Below, piece by piece: positions 41,252 to 56,270 of a stretch of DNA of 63,207 nucleotides. Each line of letters opens with the position of its first letter. The first letter of the stretch is position 1. The DNA is from a virus (lineage: Duplodnaviria; Caudoviricetes): IMG/VR virus record IMGVR_UViG_3300019458_000036, positions 1-63,207 of that record; one strand, written 5' to 3'. The notes under the pieces were generated by a model that did not search any database, was not told the DNA's origin, and saw only the letters and a list, made by a program, of their open reading frames with translations. Both the position numbers and the translations under genes were made by a program.

Positions 41252-41650
41252 TCACCTGAACCTCTTGTCGTGGATTTCCCACGTGGGATCTCTGAGCTTC
41301 CAGAGCAGGGCATGAGTCCACTCATGAATCAGCACTTTGTGAACCTGGCGGCCCGTCATCGAACCGATTCGCGCGTAGGCCATGACGCCGTATTCCCGAA
41401 CGCCCTTACCTACCGGTACGTCGTAAACTGCGAAGCAACCTAGGGCCAATTGGCCCGAGCAAGGCATTCGACCCGGCATCTCCAGAAGTTGCACGCCGGA
41501 CACGTCGGCTGTCGCTGCTTCTGGATAGCCCAGGGCCACGAGCCTTGCCCGAGCATCGCGGAGGGCGATATCCATCAGTCGCTCCCTGCCGCGAGCATCG
41601 GCGGAAAGGCTCATCAAGAGGAGAATTGTCACGAGGGCCGCCAGCCTCAC
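41252..41650 (-). CDS. Exported HExxH zinc metallopeptidase-like protein
   Basis: Signal peptide. VLIHEWTHAL...HDKRF (SprT-like). Confidence 0.7.
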   Translation of the reverse strand: MRLAALVTILLLMSLSADARGRERLMDIALRDARARLVALGYPEAATADVSGVQLLEMPGRMPCSGQLALGCFAVYDVPVGKGVREYGVMAYARIGSMTGRQVHKVLIHEWTHALLWKLRDPTWEIHDKRFR

Positions 41651-46115: not shown

Positions 46116-47111
46116 TTAGAAAGCCTCGAGCCCGGAGAATGCCTTCGGGAAGGACAGCACACGGATCAGCACTTCGGCATCGGCGCCGACCGTGCCGGAG
46201 CCCACTTGATCGAAATCCACGTTGAGTTCCGCGTTTGTCTTAGAGCCGTTGTTTTTCTGCCCGGTAAAGCAGCGATACTGATAAGTGGAGTCGGGGTTCG
46301 CCCCGCCGAGGTTGGCCGAGGCCGCAACCTGAGGCCGCGTGGAGTACATCGATGTGTAGGCTGAGCCGTCCCACTGGTTGACGTCCACGATCCAGGCTTG
46401 CGTTGTCGGCGCCGTCTTCGTCTTGAGTGTGACGTTGCGAACGATGAAGGGACGGCCATTGATGAACCTGAACTTGTCCGTCCCCGTGGACAAGTTGCCC
46501 GATGTCGGGAAATAGAGAACCCCTTCGGACACGTCTGGTTGCAGGAAAAACTGGGGCGGCACCGGACCCAGGACCAAACAGATTCCCGAGAAGGTCGCGT
46601 TACCCGCGCCGCCGCCGATGTTCGTCTCGAGGATGAAGTCGAGCTTCGTGGCCGACGCATCGATGGTCATCGTCTTCGTGAGCCACTCGAAGGAGCCGCC
46701 GCCCGTGTGGTAGCTGGTGTAGGTCGGCGTTACGCCATCATCCACGCCCACGCGGGCAAGCGAAGCCGTCGCTGTGTAGACCCAGACGCCCCAAGAGATA
46801 ACGCGCCCCTTGAGCCCGGGGTCGATGGCGGTCATCAATACCTTGGTAAGTTTCGACGTGGCCGAGCCCATAGTGATCTTTGCCGCCATGCCCGCGAACT
46901 TGTAGTTAGTGATATCGCGTGAGCACGATGCGCCGGTCCCGGAGAGGGTCCAGTCGGCCGGGGCCGCCGACGATCCCGCCGGCCAAATGACCGGGTAGGG
47001 GTCGTCCATCAGGTTCTTCCAGGACAGCGAGTCCAAGGACTGGAAGTTTCCCCGGACGGGCGCCGATGCGAGTGCCGCCGAAGCGGCCGGTGCTGTTCTA
47101 TCCCATGCCAT
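46116..47111 (-). CDS. Tail fiber/receptor-binding-like protein with carbohydrate-binding-type domain
   Basis: YHTGGGSFEWLT, TAPT...IVDVN, LNVDFDQVGSGTVGAD. AAGGAG RBS. Confidence 0.7.
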   Translation of the reverse strand: MAWDRTAPAASAALASAPVRGNFQSLDSLSWKNLMDDPYPVIWPAGSSAAPADWTLSGTGASCSRDITNYKFAGMAAKITMGSATSKLTKVLMTAIDPGLKGRVISWGVWVYTATASLARVGVDDGVTPTYTSYHTGGGSFEWLTKTMTIDASATKLDFILETNIGGGAGNATFSGICLVLGPVPPQFFLQPDVSEGVLYFPTSGNLSTGTDKFRFINGRPFIVRNVTLKTKTAPTTQAWIVDVNQWDGSAYTSMYSTRPQVAASANLGGANPDSTYQYRCFTGQKNNGSKTNAELNVDFDQVGSGTVGADAEVLIRVLSFPKAFSGLEAF

Positions 47112-47128
47112 GATTCACTCCTTTGACA

Positions 47129-48328
47129 CTATACCCCAACTCGAAACTCCTGTCTCGCCTGATGTTCTACTTTAGGCCCGGGCTTTAACCCCACGTACCG
47201 CTCAATCATCGCCCCTTGAAGTAACCCGGTCATCGAGGATTGCATCGATTGGCAGTAGCCCGGGAGCACCCGGAAGCGGTTCGCCGGGTCCGTTCCGTCG
47301 CTCCCCACGTAGCGACAGTGGCAACCACCGAAAGAGACGGGGTTGGCGACACAGTTTGAACAGCTGAAACCGGGCGGCTGGATCATCTGGTCGTTTCGGA
47401 TTCCCGACACGTCAGCAAGCCGCTCGAGGTCTATCACGGGATCGCGGTTCACGTCCCCTACCCGGTAGTGCAGGTCCGTCCCCGGCGCCCGGCCCGGCTC
47501 CAGAGTGGTGAAGGCCATCTCTTGACTCGGGTAGAGCCACCCCTCGGGCGTGAGGGCGAGCATGTGAAGGCCCGTGCCGCACGGCTGGTCGGGTTTCACG
47601 AGCTTGAGGAAAGCCTCGTCGAGCTTCGAGATCATGTTGGAGCTGAAAGGCGGTCTCTCGCCCCGACGCGACTGGATGGAGAGGCGCGCCACGTGGCGCA
47701 TGAAGACCTCGAGGGCGATGCGCTGCTCGCCGTTCCACTCCTTAAGCCAGTTGAGGTTGAAGTTAATCCTCGAGAAGCCTCTCTGGATCATCCAGTCGAG
47801 GTGGGCCGCTGTCGGCACGCGGTCCGGGTCGAGCTGCCACGCGATCTCGATGCCAGGGCGCCAGGCGAGGATGTCGTCGACGGGGATGTCCTGCCAGCTC
47901 GGCTTGCCGCCGTAGTAGGGGCGCGCGAGGTTGTGCAGTTCCGGCGGCCCGTCAAGGGAGAGGAGGATAGCGACGCGGTGGCGGTCGAGGATTTCCCTCG
48001 CGCGGGCATCGAGCATCGTGCCGTTAGTGGTGACGGACCACTGGAGCTCCTTGCCGGCGCTCTTGAATGCCGCGTCCCAGGTCGGCATCGCGCGCTCCAT
48101 CAGGTCGAGGTTTAGCAGCGGTTCGCCCCCGTACCAGACGCACCAGAGGCCACTCGCGGCCCAAGTCGATGCCCAGGGTAGGGCTTTTTCGAGAAGGGCG
48201 TCATCCATCATCTTTAACAGGCCCTTCTCTTTTTGCCAGCCCCACGCGTGACTTCCTTGATAGCAGTACGAGCAATTCAAGTTGCAAGTTCGCGTATTCA
48301 CGATCCAGAGAGTTTCGGTGGTGGCCAT
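47129..48328 (-). CDS. Radical SAM protein with SPASM-like C-terminal domain (399 aa)
   Basis: True start MATTETLW (TAATG overlap). CNLNCSYC, YGGEPLLN, TTNGTML, SLDG, then CGTG...GWLYPS...CSNC...GGCHC...YC. Confidence 0.93.
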   Translation of the reverse strand: MATTETLWIVNTRTCNLNCSYCYQGSHAWGWQKEKGLLKMMDDALLEKALPWASTWAASGLWCVWYGGEPLLNLDLMERAMPTWDAAFKSAGKELQWSVTTNGTMLDARAREILDRHRVAILLSLDGPPELHNLARPYYGGKPSWQDIPVDDILAWRPGIEIAWQLDPDRVPTAAHLDWMIQRGFSRINFNLNWLKEWNGEQRIALEVFMRHVARLSIQSRRGERPPFSSNMISKLDEAFLKLVKPDQPCGTGLHMLALTPEGWLYPSQEMAFTTLEPGRAPGTDLHYRVGDVNRDPVIDLERLADVSGIRNDQMIQPPGFSCSNCVANPVSFGGCHCRYVGSDGTDPANRFRVLPGYCQSMQSSMTGLLQGAMIERYVGLKPGPKVEHQARQEFRVGV

Positions 48329-51300
48329 TACACCCGCTCCGAGACAGTCTGACAGTTCGACTGACAGGTTGACTGACAAGTCGATTGACAGGTATCTTGA
48401 CAACTGAGCTGACACGTCGCCTGCTTGCACGCCGTTGCTTGGCACGAGGTCTGACACACGGCGTTGCAGTCTACTTGAGCACTCATCTGACAAGCCTGTT
48501 GACAAGCAAGCTGGCAGTTTCCCTGACAGCTGAGCTCGCAGGTTGACTGGCAGTTGATCTGACAAGTTGTCTGGCACGAGCTCTGACAAGTCGTCTGACA
48601 GCCCGCGCCCTGGCAAGTCTGGCACGTGCTCTGACAGGTTGTCTGACAGTTGATCTGGCAGGTCGTCTGACACCCGCGCTGACAAGTCGTCTGGCAGGAT
48701 TGCTCGCAGGTGATCTGACAGGCCGCCTCGCAGTTGCCTTGGCACGATGTTTGACAGGTGTTCTGACACACCGCCTCGCAGCCGACCTGACAGGATGTTT
48801 GGCAGAACTGCTGACACTCCACGATGCACGCCGCCGAAGCAACGGTCACGCGATCATCCGTTGCCTCTACCTCAACCGTACCGCCAAGAGGATTCTTGCT
48901 CAACGAGATGATGCGAAAGATGTCATTCGCTAGAACTCCTCCGCGCGCAAACCCTCGCTGCCTCGAGAGACGAAACTTGTCGCCCACCTCGAGCTTCATC
49001 AACTTCGCGCCGAGCACCGTGAGCTTGATCTTGCGGGCCGCGGTCTTCGCGAGCTCGAGGAGCCGCCCCGATGCGGTAATGGCGTTAGTCGCGTTCTTCA
49101 AGTAGGTCTCGAACTCCCGGATATCCGGTCGGCCGAGCCGCACCGTAACGGACTCGTCAGTTGACTCCCGGGCCTCGAAGATCCCCGTGTCCGGGTCCTG
49201 ATCGTGCTTCACGCGTACGGTGGTGAAGACCTCGGTGTTGGAGGCACCCGAGTCGAACTTCGCGATATCCGAGTCCCGAACATCGAGGATGTTGTCCGGC
49301 ACATCGCCAACGTAGACATGGTAGAAGACCTTGCCCTCGCCGTTGACGATGATGTTGGCGATGTTCGAGTACTCCAGCCGGTCGAAGATCTCCTTCGTCG
49401 TGGTTGACTCGTTCATGTAGATCGCCAATGACTCAGGAGCTCGCTCGCGGCTAAACTCAAAAGAGGTCTCGTCAATCACCTCTGGGCTCTTGTGCATGTA
49501 GCTCACGAGAAGTGTCCGGCAGATGTCGGCCCCGATCTCGATGAGCGAGTTGCTCGACCCCGTGAATGTGCCCGCATCGTCGTCCTTGAAACCTTGGGCA
49601 TCGACTCGCAAGATGTGATTCTTGTCCACGTCGGAAAAGGTCGCGTTGTCGCCCTCGTAGCTTAGGGCTCCGGTCTTATCAGCCGAGAGGTTGTAACCCA
49701 GTGTCTTATAGCCCGCGATGGCCGCATTGGTCCCAGTCTTGACGAGGAGCTGTAGGGTGCCGGAGATCTTGCTGATGGTGAATTTGTGAGTCGTGGTAGA
49801 TAGCGAGCACGCGATCGCGGCACCCGACGCTGCCGTCATCTTGTCCGCCACCTCGGCCGCGATGGCCGGGCCGGTGTAGACTCCGACCGTAAGGGTAGCC
49901 ACCAACGAGCTGGCGCCGATGTTGAAGTCCAAGCGACGGTTTGTCTCGTCAATCGTATAAGGCCCAACGTCGGTGACGACGGAGAATTGCCCGTTAGCTA
50001 GGTCTTGAGTAAAGTCACTAGACAAGAGGGTTGCCGCCAAGTCCGTTCGATTATTAGTCGCATCCTGATCCGAGGGGAACGCAAGAATCTGGTCGATCGC
50101 TAGAATGCCTGCCGGTGACTCGGTACAGTCGGCAATCTCATACGTCCCAAAACTCGTTGTATCACTGGCATCAATTCGCGTCGGATCGATATGCTCCTTC
50201 ACGCCGAAGAAGAGCGGGCGAACTCGGCCCTGTTTTCGGGTGTCGAGGTTCCCGAAGCTCACGTCATCGTAGACGCGCGTCGGAAGCTTGAGGTGAAAGT
50301 AGACCCGCTGATCTTGCAGGTCGAAGCGAGCTTCCTGATCCGTGAAGCCTATCGATTGAACCAGCCCGGTGAATCCGCGAAACCAGTCATCTAGAAGAAT
50401 CTCCTGCAGGTCTCCGCTGAACTGCCCGCCCACGTTAACCAACACCTCTTGGTTCATCCACTCGAGTTCTGCCGCCAACCGTTCAAGCAAGCCATCGTGG
50501 TTCAACAGACTCACGCTACCCGAGCCGATTGACTTGCCGCCAAAGAAAAGGTCATTGCTCCCAGTCTGGATGGCTGGCACCGAGGCCGCGGTGAGCCTGG
50601 GCTCGTACCAGTTGAATCGATAGATGCGCTGCATCTGGAGTCCATCAAAGATGGTGGAACCAATGGCACCCCCGGCGGCAATGGCCCCGAACTGAAACTC
50701 GTGCTCGGTATCGAAGGCAATAAAGTCGAAGACGAACCTGCGCCACTCTGAGCCAGTCCGGTCAAGATTAACCCAATCTGGCGTTGAAAGCAGCGTTCGC
50801 CCGCGAGTATATTCAATGGATACTGTCCTGGCAGTATTACCGACCCGGAATCTGGCATCAATGTCTCCAGATGTCTTATACCAGCCGCTGGCCCTGTACT
50901 TCTTACCGACGACGAGCCCGTCGATCGTCAGCGAGATATCCCTGGTCTGGCCAGAGAGGACATCGAGCTCGACGGCGGATGATCCGTCTCTGACATCCGA
51001 TGTATTCTGAATCACGGATTCGGTGAGCGGATCCCAGATAACTGGGCCGTCCCACAGGGTCGCGCTATCATCCCAAAATGGAATGCCGGACCCGCCCATG
51101 CCCCAGCCTTCGGGACCGAGCCCGTCATCGAGCCAATCCTCGAAGCTCCCAACACCGTCTAAAAGATCTCGGCCGAGTACAGGATGGACCTGCTGGTCGC
51201 CCAGAGATGTCCGGCCGGCCGCCGAGAAGTAGAATCCCAGCGCCGCCACCGAGGAGGTTTCGCCCGGGTCGGTTTCGTCATCCAAGTGGGCGATGAGCAC

Positions 51301-51684
51301 CGAGAACTGGTCCCAGTAGATTGTAGGGCTCGCATCCCAGAAGCCAAGCGGATCATCCCACGTAGTGACACCCTGACCAAACTCCTCATCAGGATCGTAG
51401 AAGAACGTACCGGGAGTTGAAACACACTCGGAGATGGACTGGGCACGCTCGAGCCCGGTGTCGAGGAGGGTCCGCACCGATACTACGTCCCGGCGAATTC
51501 CGTCAAAGACGAATTCGAAAGGAATGGAATAGGCGTTGCCGGAGTAAGATGCCCACTGATCAGCGTCAAGAGTAGAGACGGGCCTCAGCTCTACAAAGAC
51601 ATCTTTAAAACTGCCTGTTTGCTCGCAAAGCTCTGTAAAATCTCTGAGACCGGAGCGCAAGCCGAGGACACCGTGTCCGATCAA
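48328..51684 (-). CDS. Large tail-tip/host-specificity protein with C-terminal (CQxx)n domain
   Basis: About 1120 aa, after tape measure and distal tail. RPLFFG hub-like motif and a CBM-like insert. The last 166 aa hold 39 Cys. Start uncertain (51684 or 51744). Confidence 0.85.
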   Translation of the reverse strand: MIGHGVLGLRSGLRDFTELCEQTGSFKDVFVELRPVSTLDADQWASYSGNAYSIPFEFVFDGIRRDVVSVRTLLDTGLERAQSISECVSTPGTFFYDPDEEFGQGVTTWDDPLGFWDASPTIYWDQFSVLIAHLDDETDPGETSSVAALGFYFSAAGRTSLGDQQVHPVLGRDLLDGVGSFEDWLDDGLGPEGWGMGGSGIPFWDDSATLWDGPVIWDPLTESVIQNTSDVRDGSSAVELDVLSGQTRDISLTIDGLVVGKKYRASGWYKTSGDIDARFRVGNTARTVSIEYTRGRTLLSTPDWVNLDRTGSEWRRFVFDFIAFDTEHEFQFGAIAAGGAIGSTIFDGLQMQRIYRFNWYEPRLTAASVPAIQTGSNDLFFGGKSIGSGSVSLLNHDGLLERLAAELEWMNQEVLVNVGGQFSGDLQEILLDDWFRGFTGLVQSIGFTDQEARFDLQDQRVYFHLKLPTRVYDDVSFGNLDTRKQGRVRPLFFGVKEHIDPTRIDASDTTSFGTYEIADCTESPAGILAIDQILAFPSDQDATNNRTDLAATLLSSDFTQDLANGQFSVVTDVGPYTIDETNRRLDFNIGASSLVATLTVGVYTGPAIAAEVADKMTAASGAAIACSLSTTTHKFTISKISGTLQLLVKTGTNAAIAGYKTLGYNLSADKTGALSYEGDNATFSDVDKNHILRVDAQGFKDDDAGTFTGSSNSLIEIGADICRTLLVSYMHKSPEVIDETSFEFSRERAPESLAIYMNESTTTKEIFDRLEYSNIANIIVNGEGKVFYHVYVGDVPDNILDVRDSDIAKFDSGASNTEVFTTVRVKHDQDPDTGIFEARESTDESVTVRLGRPDIREFETYLKNATNAITASGRLLELAKTAARKIKLTVLGAKLMKLEVGDKFRLSRQRGFARGGVLANDIFRIISLSKNPLGGTVEVEATDDRVTVASAACIVECQQFCQTSCQVGCEAVCQNTCQTSCQGNCEAACQITCEQSCQTTCQRGCQTTCQINCQTTCQSTCQTCQGAGCQTTCQSSCQTTCQINCQSTCELSCQGNCQLACQQACQMSAQVDCNAVCQTSCQATACKQATCQLSCQDTCQSTCQSTCQSNCQTVSERV
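48331..48828 (-). repeat. Coding 12-nt-period repeat encoding C-(Q/E)-x-x
   Basis: Recurrent TGTCAG/TGCCAG on the minus strand, with synonymous variation. Confidence 0.95.
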
Positions 51685-52790
51685 GCCAGCACCGTTTGAA
51701 AAGCAAGCCCCAGCTCCCAGTAGTTCGGCGGCACGCGGCTCCACTTGGGGTTTACTTTCAGGATGAGATAGCGCACGAACGAGGTATCGTCGTCGGGGTC
51801 AAAGGCAAAAAAGAACGGGCGTCCTCGATGCGTGAAGTCCAAGAACACGTCGAAGTCGATCTTCTCGGCAGGCGTGAGCGCTGGCCACTTCAGTCCCCAC
51901 TCCGTTCGGGTAGGCTTCTCGTTGTGGAAAGAGGCTCCGCGATCAGCGAGGCCGACCTCGGAGAGCTCTGCCCGGTCCTCGCTCCACTCGATGGCGAAGT
52001 CTATCCCCGGCTCGATAAACCCTGACACATGCAAGAGCCCGGCTTCGGTAAACCCGTCCGGGTTTTGCACGTCCGTGAAGACATGTCTCCAGAACGCGTA
52101 GGTTTGCATCGAGGTGAAAAAGTTGTAGCGCAGGGGCAGAGGACTCGTGACCGAGATGCTCTGAGTGTCCTCGAAGGGCGGCGCGGCCCAGGACGCGGAG
52201 GAGTTGGCCTGAGTCTTGACGGTGCCCGCCGCGAGTAAATTGTGGTTGAGGGCCAGTGAGACCTTGCCGTCGGCCGCGGACTGTAGCTCAACCTGGACCC
52301 ACTCCCGCGAGTGATAGGCAACGTTATCAGAAGTATAGGTGGTACTGCCTGACTTGTTGGTTTCCGTGAAACCGAGGTCAAGGGCCACTGACCTCGCGAG
52401 GTTGGCCCCGTCGAGGAACTTCAGCACCACCGCGGCGCTGCCGGTTGCCCGAGTGATCGTGAACTTGAAGTCATCGGGGTCATAGGTTACGGTGTAAGTG
52501 TTGGTGACACCTGAGGCCGCATTCATCTGCGCCTGCACGTGAGCGGCGAAGTCGGCGCCCGTCTCGTAGTTCCCGACCGTGAGCAACGCCACTCGAGCGT
52601 TGCCGTCTTCGGTGAAGTCGCATCTATCGTTAAAATTTGCGGAAACGTTCCATCCCAACTTGGAGCGCCATGTTGCAGACGGCGATGGATCTCTGAGCCG
52701 ACGAACGGGAAAGGAGAGATCTTGTGACGAGGCAGTCACCAGCGCCCCCGTGAATCCTGCGAAGGGCTGGTAAATTATGCGACCCGGCAT
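51681..52790 (-). CDS. Distal tail/minor tail protein
   Basis: 369 aa after tape measure. ALNHNL, YAFWR, GRPFFFAFDPD. Confidence 0.75.
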   Translation of the reverse strand: MPGRIIYQPFAGFTGALVTASSQDLSFPVRRLRDPSPSATWRSKLGWNVSANFNDRCDFTEDGNARVALLTVGNYETGADFAAHVQAQMNAASGVTNTYTVTYDPDDFKFTITRATGSAAVVLKFLDGANLARSVALDLGFTETNKSGSTTYTSDNVAYHSREWVQVELQSAADGKVSLALNHNLLAAGTVKTQANSSASWAAPPFEDTQSISVTSPLPLRYNFFTSMQTYAFWRHVFTDVQNPDGFTEAGLLHVSGFIEPGIDFAIEWSEDRAELSEVGLADRGASFHNEKPTRTEWGLKWPALTPAEKIDFDVFLDFTHRGRPFFFAFDPDDDTSFVRYLILKVNPKWSRVPPNYWELGLAFQTVLA

Positions 52791-53332
52791 GAAAGTCTCT
52801 CCAACTGTCGCGTGAGCCGCGCTATCTGCACTTCGGGACGAGCAAGGGCGGATTTCAGTGCAGCCCTATGTCTTTCTTTCACTTCGGGACGAGCAAGGGC
52901 GGCTTTTATTGCGGCCCTGTGTCTTTCCTTCACGTCGGGGCAAGCAAAGGCGGCTTTCACTGCGGCGTTGCGCTTTGCTCTCACCTCTGGTATCGGCGGG
53001 TCGCATCCTTCCCCGCCCAGAGTTCCGTTTGTGAGCCGGTGCCCCGCTTCTCGGTATGCCGCGATGGCACGTCGCTCCGTAGACGCGGTCATGCGGTCTT
53101 CAACAATAGCGAGCACTTTCAGCTCAGGCATGCAACCTTCGAGGATCACTTTGCGAAGCCAGTTGATTTTGTAAGAGTGTTCCGGACTGGTAGCGACCTC
53201 GCGAATGTGCCTGTCGAGGCGCCTTGTTGGGTTCTTTGCCTTGCCGATGTAGCGATAGTGCTTCGGTTCCGCAGGGTCAACGAGGGCATAGAGATAACTC
53301 CCTCGGGCGCAAGGAAAGTTTGAGAGAGTCAT
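52775..53332 (-). CDS. Free-standing GIY-YIG homing endonuclease-like protein
   Basis: YLYALVDP...RYIGKA...RLDRH...E...LTNGTLGGEG, then three 17-aa helical repeats. Confidence 0.85.
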   Translation of the reverse strand: MTLSNFPCARGSYLYALVDPAEPKHYRYIGKAKNPTRRLDRHIREVATSPEHSYKINWLRKVILEGCMPELKVLAIVEDRMTASTERRAIAAYREAGHRLTNGTLGGEGCDPPIPEVRAKRNAAVKAAFACPDVKERHRAAIKAALARPEVKERHRAALKSALARPEVQIARLTRQLERLSCRVA

Positions 53333-53333
53333 C

Positions 53334-55493
53334 TTAAAATTCTCGCAACGCGATGGTATGGGTTCGAATGGCGCCACGCTTACTTTCTCTTTCCATCCAC
53401 GTTGCCAATACGCGGCCATCGAGTACGATATTATTTTGCAATATCGGCTTAGATGAACCCTCGCCTGCTCCCGCGCTCATCCGAGCCTGAAGCTGAACGG
53501 CGATCTCGTTGGCGAGGAGGTGGCCCGAACCTTTAGGAATGACGGCCTCATTGCCGTGAAGCATTGCCGGTGACTCAGTTCCGAAATTCATAAAGTCCAA
53601 GCCCGGCGTGCCCGAAGCAAACTTCAGCGCCTTGATCTGGCTCACGACGCCCCAACCCATCGCAGCCACTTGAGCAAAGGCAACTATACTTGCTGGCCAA
53701 GGTGACGCTAGGGCATACGTTAAAGCTGTGAGAACGTTAATAGTCGATTGCGCAATGGCCGCTATTTGACCTATTTTGCCCATCGAAGAAATCGTCGAGA
53801 GGGTCGATGCGAGGATCTCCGTGTTGGACATCTTCTTCTGCAAAGCAGTCTGCTTGTCGGCTTCACGGACAGCGGCCTCGTATGCTTCCCATCTCGCTTG
53901 AAGTTGCTCTGCCGTTTCTGTACCCTTTTCCTGCGCAGACTCGAACTCAGCCCTCAACCTATCGGCCGTGATCTGCGACTCGGTGCGGGTAAACGTGCCC
54001 CAGCGTCTAAAGCTCTCAGTCATCAGCTTATTTTGCTCGTAGACTAGCGAGCCGACGCCCGTATATTCGGTTTTCCACGGCTCCAGCCCCTCGGTCTTTA
54101 CCCGGTTAAAGTCGTCAATGAATTCCTGCGCCCAGATCTCCTGCGCCGCGGCGCTGGCCTGGGCTTTCGAGATGCCGAGAACTGTCTCGTCGTTCAGGGA
54201 CTTGAGGTTGTCCTTTGCTTTCTTGATCCTTTCCGCGTGTAGAGCAGCACCAGCCGCCTTCTGGAAGCCGATGTCCATCTCCTTAAACTTGGCCAGCGAC
54301 ATCTCCATGAAGTTCGCGAGCTCTTGTTCCTTCCTTGAAGCTTCATTTGTGGCGAGGGTCATCCTGACCCGTGCTGCGGCACTCGGCCCCGCAGCTAAGG
54401 TAAGCGCCGCGGTCTTCTCTGCCACTTTAGCTTGTGCTTCACCATAGGAGCGCATTTCAGCGGCCGACACCGCCACGGCGTCCGCGACCTCTTTTTCCTT
54501 CTGAGTGACTTTTTCAGTGGCCCTAGCCATGGCCTCAGAGTGTGAAACTCCGAGCATCATGAGCTCAGATGCTTCTCTCTTGATCTTCAGCTCACGCTCT
54601 AACTGAGAACCGGCTTCCTTGCTCGCGGCAACGAAGTTCACCAGTTGCCCCGTTGCTTCCGCCAGCCTACCGACAAAGGGGCCAAGTGCCTCGGCCAGTA
54701 AGCTCTTGCCCGATGCTTTCAGCGCATCCCAGTTGTCACCCAGCTCGTCGCCGGCTTTCAAGGTCTTTTCGGAAATTATAATGCCAAGGGCTTCGGCTTT
54801 TTCGGCGAGCGCCGCAAAGTCATTACGAATGAGCGGCAGCATCTGCATGCCGCCGCGACCAAACAACTGGATGGCGATAGCTGACTGCTTTGCCGGATCC
54901 TCGATGCGATTAAGAGCAGTTACGATTGCCGTGAACTGGTCTTCCGGCTTCATTGCCCGGAGATCGCTGAAGCTAAACCCGAGTTGCGCGATGGCTGCCT
55001 GAGTTGCCTTACTTGACTTACCGAGGCTAACCTCGAACCGGTTAACCGCCATAGTGGTACTCTCGAACGGAGCACCGGTCTGGTCGGCGGCAAACTTCAG
55101 CTTCTGAAGAAAATCAGTCGAGAGTCCCGTACGGTCACGCAGGCGAATCATCTCGTCGCCCATGCGAACCACCGAGGCTACCCCCGAGCCAATGGCAACG
55201 CTGGCTACGCCCGCGGCGATGCCAAGCGGCCCCAAGCCGCTCATCAAAGTAGACGCCGAGCTAGCCATCGAGTTCATGGCGGCCCCCGCTTGGGCTACCG
55301 GGCCACCCATGGCGCCTAAAACTCCTGAGACCTCGCCAACTTTACCTTTAAAGTCCCCGAGGGGCGCAGCACCCGCCTCGGCAGCCTGGCCGACCTGTCT
55401 TACCGCGCCAGCAGCCCGGTCAGCTCCGGCCTCGAGGTCCGCCGTGTCCGCGGTAAACCTGACTAAAACTTCGCCTAAGTCGAGGGCCGCCAT
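53334..55493 (-). CDS. Tape measure protein
   Basis: 719 aa, Ala-rich. LGEVLVRFTADT start, TGLSTDFLQKL, LFGRGG, FASGT...LHGNEAVIP. Confidence 0.92.
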   Translation of the reverse strand: MAALDLGEVLVRFTADTADLEAGADRAAGAVRQVGQAAEAGAAPLGDFKGKVGEVSGVLGAMGGPVAQAGAAMNSMASSASTLMSGLGPLGIAAGVASVAIGSGVASVVRMGDEMIRLRDRTGLSTDFLQKLKFAADQTGAPFESTTMAVNRFEVSLGKSSKATQAAIAQLGFSFSDLRAMKPEDQFTAIVTALNRIEDPAKQSAIAIQLFGRGGMQMLPLIRNDFAALAEKAEALGIIISEKTLKAGDELGDNWDALKASGKSLLAEALGPFVGRLAEATGQLVNFVAASKEAGSQLERELKIKREASELMMLGVSHSEAMARATEKVTQKEKEVADAVAVSAAEMRSYGEAQAKVAEKTAALTLAAGPSAAARVRMTLATNEASRKEQELANFMEMSLAKFKEMDIGFQKAAGAALHAERIKKAKDNLKSLNDETVLGISKAQASAAAQEIWAQEFIDDFNRVKTEGLEPWKTEYTGVGSLVYEQNKLMTESFRRWGTFTRTESQITADRLRAEFESAQEKGTETAEQLQARWEAYEAAVREADKQTALQKKMSNTEILASTLSTISSMGKIGQIAAIAQSTINVLTALTYALASPWPASIVAFAQVAAMGWGVVSQIKALKFASGTPGLDFMNFGTESPAMLHGNEAVIPKGSGHLLANEIAVQLQARMSAGAGEGSSKPILQNNIVLDGRVLATWMERESKRGAIRTHTIALREF

Positions 55494-55494
55494 G

Positions 55495-55890
55495 TTAGTG
55501 CTTTTTCCTCAAGTCGACGCCGCCAAGTAACTCATTCAGCCGCGCCACAAAAGCAATGGACTCTTTCACTGTGCTGACTTTATCCTGCTTAGCCTCGGAC
55601 CGCTGCCAAAAACTGAACTCTTTCGGATTGATGATCTGCTGATCGGCGTCAACTCCGTGGCAAGCAAGGGTGATCGTACACAAGCGGTCAAAAGAGTTGA
55701 CCAAGGCTGCTGCCAGCTCAGCGTGGTGAGCATCTAACAGAGCATCGCCCCAGGGCTCGATCTCCGTGTAGGCTTTCCACTCGGTCAACTCTTGCATAGT
55801 CAATTCACGCTCTAACTGCCTGACGGTTTTTCCGAGGGCGAGGGCGAGACGGAAGAGGAAGCGGCGATATCCGTCTGCCCTGAGTCTTCC
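55495..55890 (-). CDS. Tail assembly chaperone, -1 frame extension (gpT-like)
   Basis: The -1 frame reads RLRADGYRRFLFRLALALGKTVRQLERELTMQELTEWKAY...EPWG. Confidence 0.8.
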   Translation of the reverse strand, partial: GRLRADGYRRFLFRLALALGKTVRQLERELTMQELTEWKAYTEIEPWGDALLDAHHAELAAALVNSFDRLCTITLACHGVDADQQIINPKEFSFWQRSEAKQDKVSTVKESIAFVARLNELLGGVDLRKKH

Positions 55891-56270
55891 CCCAGCTTTT
55901 TGGTCTCCTCTTCACCCAGCTTGTTCAGGGCGAAGACCGCGCTAACGATTCGATCGATCGCTGCTGAAGACTTTTGCCCGAGCTTCGAGATTTGGTTGTA
56001 GTCAAACAACCTCTCGTGAGTTTCCGGGTCGATGATGGAGAGAGCGGCAAGTTTGATGCGGAAGTTGGCCAGGTCCCAGGCCGCGTCACCTTTGCCCACC
56101 CGGACAACTCCGGCACCCTCGTCCGTAACTAGGGTAGCTTGCAACCAGTCACGGTCCGCGGCCACGAGCTCCCGGATGCGCACCGTGCCGCCCCACTCCG
56201 GAACATCGACATCAGTCTCTTTGACGTCATCGGCCCCTAGAATCTCGTCAGCTTTCAGATACTTGATCAC
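55812..56270 (-). CDS. Tail assembly chaperone (gpG-like)
   Basis: ILGADD...VDVPEWGGTVRIREL...RD. Confidence 0.85.
   Translation of the reverse strand: MIKYLKADEILGADDVKETDVDVPEWGGTVRIRELVAADRDWLQATLVTDEGAGVVRVGKGDAAWDLANFRIKLAALSIIDPETHERLFDYNQISKLGQKSSAAIDRIVSAVFALNKLGEEETKKLGEDSGQTDIAASSSVSPSPSEKPSGS
55887..55893 (-). other. Programmed -1 ribosomal frameshift site G GGG GAA
   Basis: Slippery heptamer in the correct phase, joining the two chaperone frames. Confidence 0.8.

Follow-up and report, generated by a model that had tools for sequence, protein, structure and literature searches.

A putative thioether-forming radical SAM maturase encoded in overlap with a cysteine-repeat tail-tip hub gene of a siphovirus-type phage

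Described Cys-modifying radical SAM systems and the phage locus

Ranthipeptide-type radical S-adenosylmethionine (SAM) maturases of the SPASM class and targets with Cys-Xaa-Xaa-Xaa (CXXX) repeats are already represented in curated families, and thioether links in proteins are known from QhpC and CrpA. Here, we describe a candidate relative of these systems in the IMG/VR virus record IMGVR_UViG_3300019458_000036 (Duplodnaviria; Caudoviricetes). The window, which is this complete record of 63,207 nucleotides, contains a minus-strand tail gene that ends in a Cys-rich repeat and overlaps the gene of a 399-residue radical SAM enzyme. What is new relative to the described systems is the proposed substrate, a phage tail-tip hub protein apparently joined by other virion proteins elsewhere, and the pairing of repeat and enzyme across many uncultured phages with natural with/without controls. 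The enzyme is also new in that it appears, by sequence, to lack a leader-recognition domain and to carry a variant SPASM region.

The family closest to the enzyme in score is PapB, the maturase of PapA (freyrasin; NF047865). PapB is described as forming many thioethers in a tandem Cys-X3-Asp/Glu repeat (PMC9413430). NF047865 is the best-scoring NCBIfam family for the phage enzyme (E 3e-35, enzyme residues 8-337, model positions 6-317 of 330), yet its 122 bits fall short of the cut-off of 340 and leave the enzyme outside the family. The proposed substrate is also different: PapA is a small peptide with six Cys-X3-Asp motifs, whereas the phage repeat is the end of a ~1100-residue virion protein with ~39 sites at a period of 4, most of them with Gln. 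A second point of comparison is the CXXX-repeat system (TIGR04114, TIGR04115, TIGR04117). TIGR04117, the ‘Cys-Xaa-Xaa-Xaa repeat radical SAM target protein’, is the sole NCBIfam family matched by the repeat even at E<=10, with four matched stretches, and the TIGR04115 maturase model aligns with the enzyme over its full length (E 6.5e-18, residues 8-339). Both scores lie below their cut-offs (28.6 versus 50 bits for the repeat; 65.3 versus 350 bits for the enzyme), and CXXX-repeat targets are small stand-alone proteins. A literature search, with most subscription journals beyond its reach, returned no experimental work on these systems.

By profile, the solved structure nearest to the enzyme is PDB 5wgg/5why, which we take to be CteB, the SCIFF maturase. 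A 50-member enzyme profile matches 5wgg_A at E 7.7e-38 and SkfB at just 3e-4, and 5wgg/5why are among the top fold matches (TM-score 0.68-0.69). In 5wgg_A the profile covers residues 97-416, while the cluster motif of the enzyme begins at its residue 15, so the N-terminal leader-recognition part, a PqqD-like RiPP (a peptide made by the ribosome and modified after translation) recognition element, is missing from the phage protein. A further difference is that the Cys of the 5wgg ‘YPC’ is Ser in the enzyme family. An earlier note, made from the DNA letters alone, had called the repeat SCIFF-like, a label that has to be dropped: the SCIFF maturase model TIGR03974 covers only the N-terminal part of the enzyme (64.8 bits versus a cut-off of 425), and the repeat has no match to the SCIFF precursor model even at E<=10. 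The kinship with CteB-like thioether maturases that was proposed alongside that label is upheld, in that the nearest relatives of the enzyme are ranthipeptide-type formers (PapB, 5wgg).

QhpD, a radical SAM/SPASM enzyme acting on a protein subunit rather than a natural-product peptide, is described as installing Cys-to-Glu (S-C-gamma) and Cys-to-Asp (S-C-beta) thioethers in the subunit QhpC (PMC13692751). The QhpD-type model TIGR03906 matches the phage enzyme at E 3.6e-26. According to the same source, QhpC is a small subunit with three links and QhpD uses a leader-recognition element (PMC13692751), whereas the phage locus would combine tens of sites and a virion protein with no such element. 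That source, from 2026, also reports CrpA of Methanococcus voltae, in which ranthionine links were demonstrated by -2 Da steps, the loss of alkylatable Cys and deuterium labeling. CrpA resembles the phage protein as a Cys-rich repeat protein encoded beside a SPASM radical SAM enzyme, CrpC; it differs in being archaeal and cellular, with a 17-residue repeat containing C-X-X-Q/D motifs and an enzyme that has a predicted leader-recognition element (PMC13692751). The words ‘phage’ and ‘viral’ are absent from the main text of PMC13692751, and our literature search, again with most subscription journals out of reach, turned up no paper in which a radical SAM enzyme modifies a protein of a phage tail or virion. 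Should the enzyme prove to staple the tail tip, the virus particle would be the first, as far as that search goes, with a post-translational modification made by a radical SAM enzyme, and the case would be one of very few RiPP-type thioether cases on a full-size protein.

The repeat, the hub protein and the enzyme

The tail gene lies in a minus-strand open reading frame (ORF; 48331..51744) of 1138 codons from a GTG, of which the last 166 encode 39 Cys and the other 972 only 6. Gln follows 32 of these 39 Cys and Glu follows 4 (36/39 together), CQTSCQ is present three times, and the spacing from Cys to Cys is exactly 4 residues in 33 of 38 intervals. The TAA of this gene (48330-48328) overlaps the ATG of the enzyme gene (48328-48326) as TAATG. 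This anatomy, including the radical SAM identity of the downstream ORF, had been outlined in the earlier note and is borne out here. The 566-residue ORF of the mechanical ORF list (47129..48829) is an out-of-frame GTG extension over the repeat, and the real start of the enzyme gene is at 48328. The hub gene itself most likely starts at a TTG (51684, codon 21 of the long ORF), which overlaps the upstream stop as TTGA.

At the DNA level, a pattern of four units of TGY SAR N6 has 24 matches in the window, all on the minus strand between 48349 and 48816, as against 0.00 in 100 dinucleotide-preserving shuffles. Tandem Repeats Finder reports periods of 12, 24 and 48 with matches of just 67-81%. Because the units are only this similar, the array is diverged in DNA while its periodicity is kept in protein, and no recent slippage array is at work here. 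AlphaFold2 draws the repeat domain as helices with a predicted local distance difference test (pLDDT) score of only 37-67, and the repeat region found no usable match in the ESM Atlas. Midway through the domain the period is broken by C-Q-T-C-Q-G-A-G-C-Q (residues 1041-1049 of the hub protein, P0002; window region 48601-48620). The corresponding unit C-(Q/E)-G-x-x-C-(Q/E) is found in 11 of 19 family members and also in two carriers of different build, L081 and L112; it could serve as a hinge or point to a shared origin.

The 1138-residue protein matches no Pfam, NCBIfam or PHROG family. A phmmer search against PDB sequences gave no match at E<=1, and tblastn against 50,697 deposited phage records gave none either. 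Its AlphaFold2 model consists of blocks mostly at pLDDT 80-95 up to residue 965, and Foldseek aligns this model with chains of the T5 tail tip (7zhj_b, E 2.1e-15; 9ioz_J, 2.0e-13), the DT57C baseplate (8hqz_A, 4.6e-15) and the lambda tail tip (8iyk_F, 2.3e-7; 8k35_A), as well as with Chi (8vjh_A) and T1 (9l9p_S). The likeness to the hubs of these siphophages extends to gene order (chaperone, tape measure, 369-residue protein gene, hub), although the many domains of the protein keep TM-scores low (0.18-0.32 on the query). The modeled fold and a location behind the genes for tape measure and distal tail protein identify the protein as a predicted siphophage tail-tip/baseplate hub, so that the repeat would extend from the C-terminus of a tail-tip hub. 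The C-termini of lambda and T5 hub proteins normally form the distal fiber. To our knowledge, T5, DT57C, Chi, lambda and T1 have neither a Cys-repeat extension nor a dedicated modifying enzyme.

The enzyme scores 45.3 bits against Pfam Radical_SAM (PF04055; cut-off 29.5). Its CX3CX2C motif is formed by C15, C19 and C22, and the GGEP at 67-70 is invariant in 50 sequences. Judged by the cluster motif and the above-cut-off Pfam score, the predicted protein belongs to the radical SAM superfamily. The C-terminal region is less regular. A SPASM motif comprises seven Cys, CX9-15GX4C ... CX2CX5CX3C ... C, binding two auxiliary 4Fe-4S clusters. In the enzyme family, six Cys are invariant (250, 323, 326, 336, 338 and 359), an invariant Ser268 sits in place of the second SPASM Cys, and the spacing is CX2CX9CXC instead of CX2CX5CX3C. 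In Pfam at E<=0.01 only Radical_SAM and Fer4_12 match, and no SPASM family does. Despite these deviations, the AlphaFold2 model (pLDDT 91.9) superposes over its full length on the SPASM enzymes ChlB, anSMEcpe and 5why/5wgg with TM-scores of 0.65-0.69. The ‘SPASM-like’ description given earlier therefore needs adjusting, with a fold that matches SPASM enzymes and a motif that departs from the canonical one.

Other NCBIfam models near the enzyme are the nif11-type and QhpD-type maturases, and sactipeptide models are far weaker (RumMC 1.4e-13, GggB 3.3e-10). These comparisons suggest that the nearest relatives are thioether formers acting on Cys and on Asp/Glu side chains (PapB, QhpD). Among the 50,697 deposited phage records, tblastn with the enzyme found only distant radical SAM matches, in 30 records at 21.5-34.1% identity, one of them with >=80% coverage.

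The repeat unit itself bears on which residue may receive the Cys sulfur. PapB is described as accepting Cys-Xn-Asp with n = 0-6 and also Cys/Glu pairs (PMC9413430), and the nearest characterized relatives as linking the sulfur of Cys to C-beta of Asp or C-gamma of Glu (PMC13692751). Across 580 period-4 units from 22 family sequences, position 2 is Gln in 66.7% and Glu in 24.3%, position 3 is variable, and position 4 is Thr, Ser, Ala, Gly or Asn in 84%. Where the Cys spacing is not 4, Gln or Glu still directly follows Cys (98% at spacing 3, 79% at spacing 5) and it is the distance to the next Cys that shifts, so the conserved unit is the dipeptide Cys-Gln/Glu. Gln and Glu share the same side-chain carbons. 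Since the nearest relatives link Cys to Asp or Glu, PapB from n = 0, and these carbons are shared, Gln/Glu would be the most likely acceptor. By sequence, a link to the adjacent Gln/Glu and a link to that of a neighboring unit fit equally. A fixed Q-x-x-C ring, similar to the streptococcal NxxC peptides, is disfavored, as Gln/Glu tracks the preceding rather than the next Cys when the spacing changes.

Joint occurrence of repeat and enzyme

Searched against protein sequences, the enzyme brings up 90 proteins that form a family with a sharp edge (E 1e-185 to 1.7e-67; next match 2e-16), many of them on 40-66 kb contigs. Alignment-based scans yielded 28 enzyme loci, 6 of them viral, 21 metagenomic and 1 (the prophage-like locus L007) on a 5.1-Mb contig of a Vicinamibacteria metagenome-assembled genome, whereas a scan of viral contigs with the single enzyme sequence gave no match. 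A C-(Q/E) repeat ORF ends just upstream of the enzyme in 22 of the 28; five have <100 nt of upstream sequence, and one (L020) has no repeat within 986 nt. Hence, 22 of 23 informative loci carry the repeat just upstream. The junction between hub and enzyme genes was resolved by script in 19 loci, and in 12 of these the genes overlap by 1 or 4 nt or abut; locus L017 additionally has an ATGA overlap.

Sampling from the hub side gives the same picture. A search with hub core residues 380-965 returned 36 homologues, of which 23 have 29-44 Cys in their last 200 residues, 12 have 0-2 Cys and end at the position at which a repeat would start, and 1 retains a three-Cys vestige. The precomputed label PF27846.1 is attached to 15 of the 23 repeat-bearing homologues and to none of the 13 others (proteins P0123-P0142); as it tracks the repeat-bearing forms, the domain may already be catalogued. 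A scan of viral contigs seeded with repeat-less hub forms yielded 12 loci. The enzyme is present in 3/3 repeat-bearing loci with downstream sequence, a fourth running off its contig, and the six repeat-less loci have no match to the enzyme profile. In whole viral records, a PF04055 scan found the enzyme in 3/3 repeat-bearing phages and a PF04055 match in 0/6 repeat-less ones, two of which are 98-100% complete. The earlier note had proposed a search for co-occurrence of repeat-tailed structural proteins and adjacent radical SAM genes in phages, and both samplings find it.

Gene order offers a further view of this pairing. The gene of a conserved 331-residue protein lies ~50-180 nt after the hub gene in repeat-less phages and after the enzyme gene in repeat-bearing ones. 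Because it directly follows the hub gene where both are absent, repeat and enzyme appear to be inserted or deleted as one unit. We also built a quick tree from the hub core with the repeat removed. Its 22 rows take in every locus for which the hub gene is full-length and the context known, and two of them sit on long branches. The repeat-less L158 and L159 form a pair nested within the repeat-bearing rows, with support of 97-98 in the SH-like approximate likelihood ratio test (SH-aLRT). Parsimony gives 3 changes, no fewer than 2 joint ones being forced, and the state of the enzyme equals that of the repeat in 22/22 rows. Close phage relatives with neither repeat nor enzyme thus provide natural controls.

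A homology-free scan of viral contigs with a six-unit C-(Q/E)-x-x DNA pattern extends the pairing to other carriers. It returned at least 119 stretches, which were classed by eye as ‘complex’ or ‘simple’; the counts that follow are among the matches listed. The majority are tandem repeats of a 12-nt unit, monotonous in sequence and read in one frame or another (such as CQRQ or CEPS). Sixteen are complex repeats, and a radical SAM gene is nearby in 13 of them; the other three (L046, L100, L119) are cut by the end of the contig or locus. L136, whose repeat region is near-identical to that of L046, has the enzyme 760 nt downstream. In L085 the radical SAM gene is ~7 kb from the repeat on the same strand, and in L076 it was found after the rest of the contig had been fetched. 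The remaining 103 loci have no match to the enzyme profile. Ten of the radical SAM genes beside complex repeats were scanned: PapB is the top family in 8, one is a SPASM-domain fragment, and that of L118 is TIGR04115.

The carriers of complex repeats differ, and include a Hoc-like head decoration protein (L042), a 613-residue ORF (L154) and large proteins of unknown family. The Hoc-like protein (L042:730-2744; phrog_10993, E 1.6e-89, Ig-like domains) has its C-(Q/E)-x-x repeat near the N-terminus, and the final part of a SPASM radical SAM gene is found directly upstream, overlapping the Hoc-like gene. In L154 (3-2971), the whole contig of L076, the 613-residue ORF contains 120 C-(Q/E)-x-x units and is directly followed by a PapB-like radical SAM/SPASM ORF cut by the contig end; this repeat is matched by phrog_6085, a family of 129 positions and unknown function. 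L118 (9981-12092), also a viral contig, encodes a TIGR04115 maturase (485.6 bits versus a cut-off of 350) adjoining a 131-residue Cys-rich peptide that matches TIGR04114 (22.2 bits versus a cut-off of 20).

Proposed modification of the tail tip and competing explanations

The reading that we favor, and consider fairly probable, is that a leader-independent maturase, translated along with the hub, introduces many Cys-to-Gln/Glu thioethers into the C-terminal module of the hub, so that the distal tip is stapled independently of disulfides. The enzyme gene, overlapping the hub stop, would probably be translated together with the hub gene. An enzyme of the PapB/5wgg/QhpD kind would then reductively cleave SAM and abstract hydrogen from a side-chain carbon, to which each Cys sulfur would be joined, most likely that of the Gln/Glu following the Cys. 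Many thioether (ranthionine-type) links would result, turning a Cys-rich tail of poor order into a stapled rod or knob at the phage tail's distal end, covalently held and insensitive to redox conditions. As first proposed, the locus was a RiPP-like system with a virion structural protein as its substrate. The comparative genomics (overlapping genes, joint presence and absence, joint change on the tree) argues strongly for that part; the repeat as substrate, the thioether as product, the acceptor residue and the role of the modified tip, for which stability, receptor binding and metal loading had been put forward, are what we infer. If true, covalent and redox-proof cross-linking of the host-contacting tip would be a new variable for phage biology, and the locus would offer a leader-independent maturase with possibly ~40 sites on a simple C-Q-x-x tag ending an 1100-residue protein.

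Several points weigh against this proposal. Firstly, the chemistry of the repeat modification is inferred from related enzymes. The enzyme falls below every curated family cut-off (PapB, 122 versus 340 bits), and function is therefore not transferable as from an equivalog; its auxiliary-cluster region also appears atypical, with six Cys, Ser for Cys and altered spacing. Secondly, the acceptors of PapB and QhpD are carboxylates, whereas by this analogy the amide Gln would be the dominant acceptor here. Thirdly, the modeled repeat structure has no confident prediction: its helices are of such low confidence that link geometry is unreadable, and none favors a particular link. Fourthly, the pairing has loose ends. 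L020 has the enzyme and other genes but no repeat in the 986 nt upstream, where the contig ends; the hub with the three-Cys vestige (P0131) and an enzyme homologue (P0021) are both on 64,705-nt European Nucleotide Archive contigs, which may be one and the same; and the counts from the pattern scan are lower bounds that depend on a complex/simple split made by eye. A complex prediction (enzyme alignment A1, hub residues 935-1040, SAM and three 4Fe-4S clusters, run with no controls) gave a score of 0.00 and a mark of 0.32, and speaks neither for nor against binding.

The enzyme might instead act on the repeat by other Cys-directed radical chemistry, which we regard as unlikely. It could form sactionine links (S to C-alpha), possibly between the halves of the domain or between the chains of a trimer, or convert Cys to formylglycine as in anaerobic sulfatase maturases. 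Anaerobic sulfatase-maturating enzymes and other SPASM enzymes fit the fold about as well as 5wgg, the sulfatase maturase model TIGR03942 matches the N-terminal core at 5.7e-17, and the five-residue unit in the middle of the domain is a possible hairpin hinge. Full-length similarity, however, favors PapB, 5wgg and QhpD over the sactisynthases by many orders of magnitude, and a backbone carbon as acceptor would leave the strict Gln/Glu beside Cys unexplained. A sulfatase-type motif also appears to be lacking from the repeat.

Quite unlikely, in our view, is a metal-binding, iron-sulfur-binding or disulfide-rich repeat domain that forms no thioethers, with the radical SAM-like protein as a cluster donor or assembly chaperone. 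The fully conserved SAM-cleaving core (CX3CX2C, GGEP, PF04055 above its cut-off) is at odds with such a role, as are the scanned enzymes beside other complex repeats, all PapB-like or CXXX-maturase-like among the matches listed, and we know of no passive-chaperone role for this enzyme class. The idea draws what support it has from the 39 regularly spaced thiols, which could chelate metals, from the degenerate auxiliary-cluster motif of the enzyme, and from the fact that siphophage tail-tip proteins with iron-sulfur clusters are known (lambda gpL).

It is very unlikely that the tail protein serves as a giant leader from which the modified repeat is cleaved off to act outside the virion as a free RiPP-like peptide (a toxin, signal or adhesin). 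RiPP cores do lie C-terminal to their leaders, and locus L026 (2711-3202) has, between its repeat and enzyme genes, a 164-residue stop-to-stop ORF with an HExxH motif (weak Aspzincin_M35 match, 20.9 bits versus a cut-off of 30) that may be a protease. No protease gene is conserved in the cassette, however, and the repeat starts directly after the hub-domain motif DD-x-VTVA-S/G in 12 of 19 members, at a C-terminus of the kind that, in lambda and T5, normally makes the distal fiber. A similar repeat at the N-terminus of the Hoc-like head decoration protein is likewise hard to square with a leader. That the enzyme is an auxiliary metabolic gene hitch-hiking beside the repeat is barely credible: phages do carry radical SAM genes for other ends, and one related record (57,760 b, 100% complete) has a second one far from its tail module (G014:C1:39288-39641), but the joint presence and absence in every assessable case, the nested joint change on the tree, the stop/start overlap and the recurrence with unrelated carrier proteins all stand against it.

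Beyond the stapled hub, we tentatively suggest a broader reading that we hold with less than even confidence. Phages may carry portable cassettes of repeat tag and radical SAM enzyme that covalently rebuild exposed virion proteins once they are translated, with thioether-stapled (C-Q/E-x-x)n tags on hubs, on the Hoc-like protein and on other large proteins, and with cyclophane-type (His/Tyr-x-Asp)n chemistry on a related tail protein, which would make RiPP chemistry a general, hitherto unrecognized route of virion maturation. If so, leader-independent enzymes of this kind could staple a four-residue repeat tag fused to any protein. The related tail protein is encoded on L169 (3651-7153; IMG/VR contig of 21,993 b), where a distant hub homologue (27% identity) ends in ~190 residues of His/Tyr-x-Asp repeats. 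A 383-residue radical SAM gene (PF04055, 33.4 bits) follows 12 nt after it, and its best NCBIfam models are cyclophane-forming maturases (DynA at 4e-14, AmcB, YhhB, FxsB, GrrM, XyeB), all below cut-off. By sequence, this looks like a second pairing of repeat tail and maturase with a different chemistry.

The window, linear and estimated to be 72% complete, is a siphovirus-type phage genome, in which portal, major head, scaffold and head-tail adaptor proteins, a DNA polymerase and helicases are also encoded. The order on the minus strand is tail assembly chaperone, tape measure, a GIY-YIG-like ORF, the 369-residue protein, the 1138-residue hub ORF, the radical SAM enzyme and the 331-residue protein (Table 1). 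In 13 of 14 related loci, tblastn places homologues of the 369-residue protein ahead of the hub gene, on its upstream side.

Table 1. Tail-module features of the window, listed in minus-strand order
Feature	Position	Strand	Basis
Tail assembly chaperone	55812..56270	-	phrog_344, E 2.9e-21
Tape measure protein	53334..55493	-	phrog_9483, E 2.7e-15, and four more tape-measure PHROGs
369-residue protein in distal-tail-protein position, directly upstream of hub gene	51681..52790	-	phrog_8610 (unknown function), E 1.3e-13
Predicted tail-tip/baseplate hub core, P0002 residues 21-972	48829..51684	-	AlphaFold2, Foldseek; TTG start 51684
C-terminal (C-Q/E-x-small) repeat domain, 166 residues, 39 Cys, proposed substrate	48331..48828	-	Sequence; TIGR04117, E 1.1e-6
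TAATG, hub-gene stop overlapping radical SAM gene start	48326..48330	-	Sequence
Predicted radical SAM maturase with variant SPASM-like C-terminal domain, 399 residues (P0001)	47129..48328	-	PF04055, NF047865, 5wgg_A, AlphaFold2, Foldseek
331-residue conserved downstream tail-module protein, far edge of cassette	46116..47111	-	No family match

Several cassettes contain additional genes or insertions. The HExxH ORF of L026 shows no similarity to an HExxH-containing ORF of the window (41252-41650). In L017 (4026-6254), the enzyme gene has an intein-like insertion of ~340 residues at the third Cys of CX3CX2C, with LAGLIDADG motifs (PF14528, 22.4 bits versus a cut-off of 22.5), which ends ...SHN and is followed by C. 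Two further proteins, P0028 and P0047, start within comparable insertions, which terminate in ...PSHN ahead of CYQGSH. L008, whose enzyme is 97% identical to that of the window, has a free-standing LAGLIDADG endonuclease gene (191-691; PF14528, 25.5 bits) between repeat and enzyme gene. In the window itself, a 214-residue ORF between the tape measure and 369-residue protein genes (52775-53419, minus strand) has a weak GIY-YIG match (19.5 bits versus a cut-off of 22.6) and may be a homing endonuclease within the tail operon.

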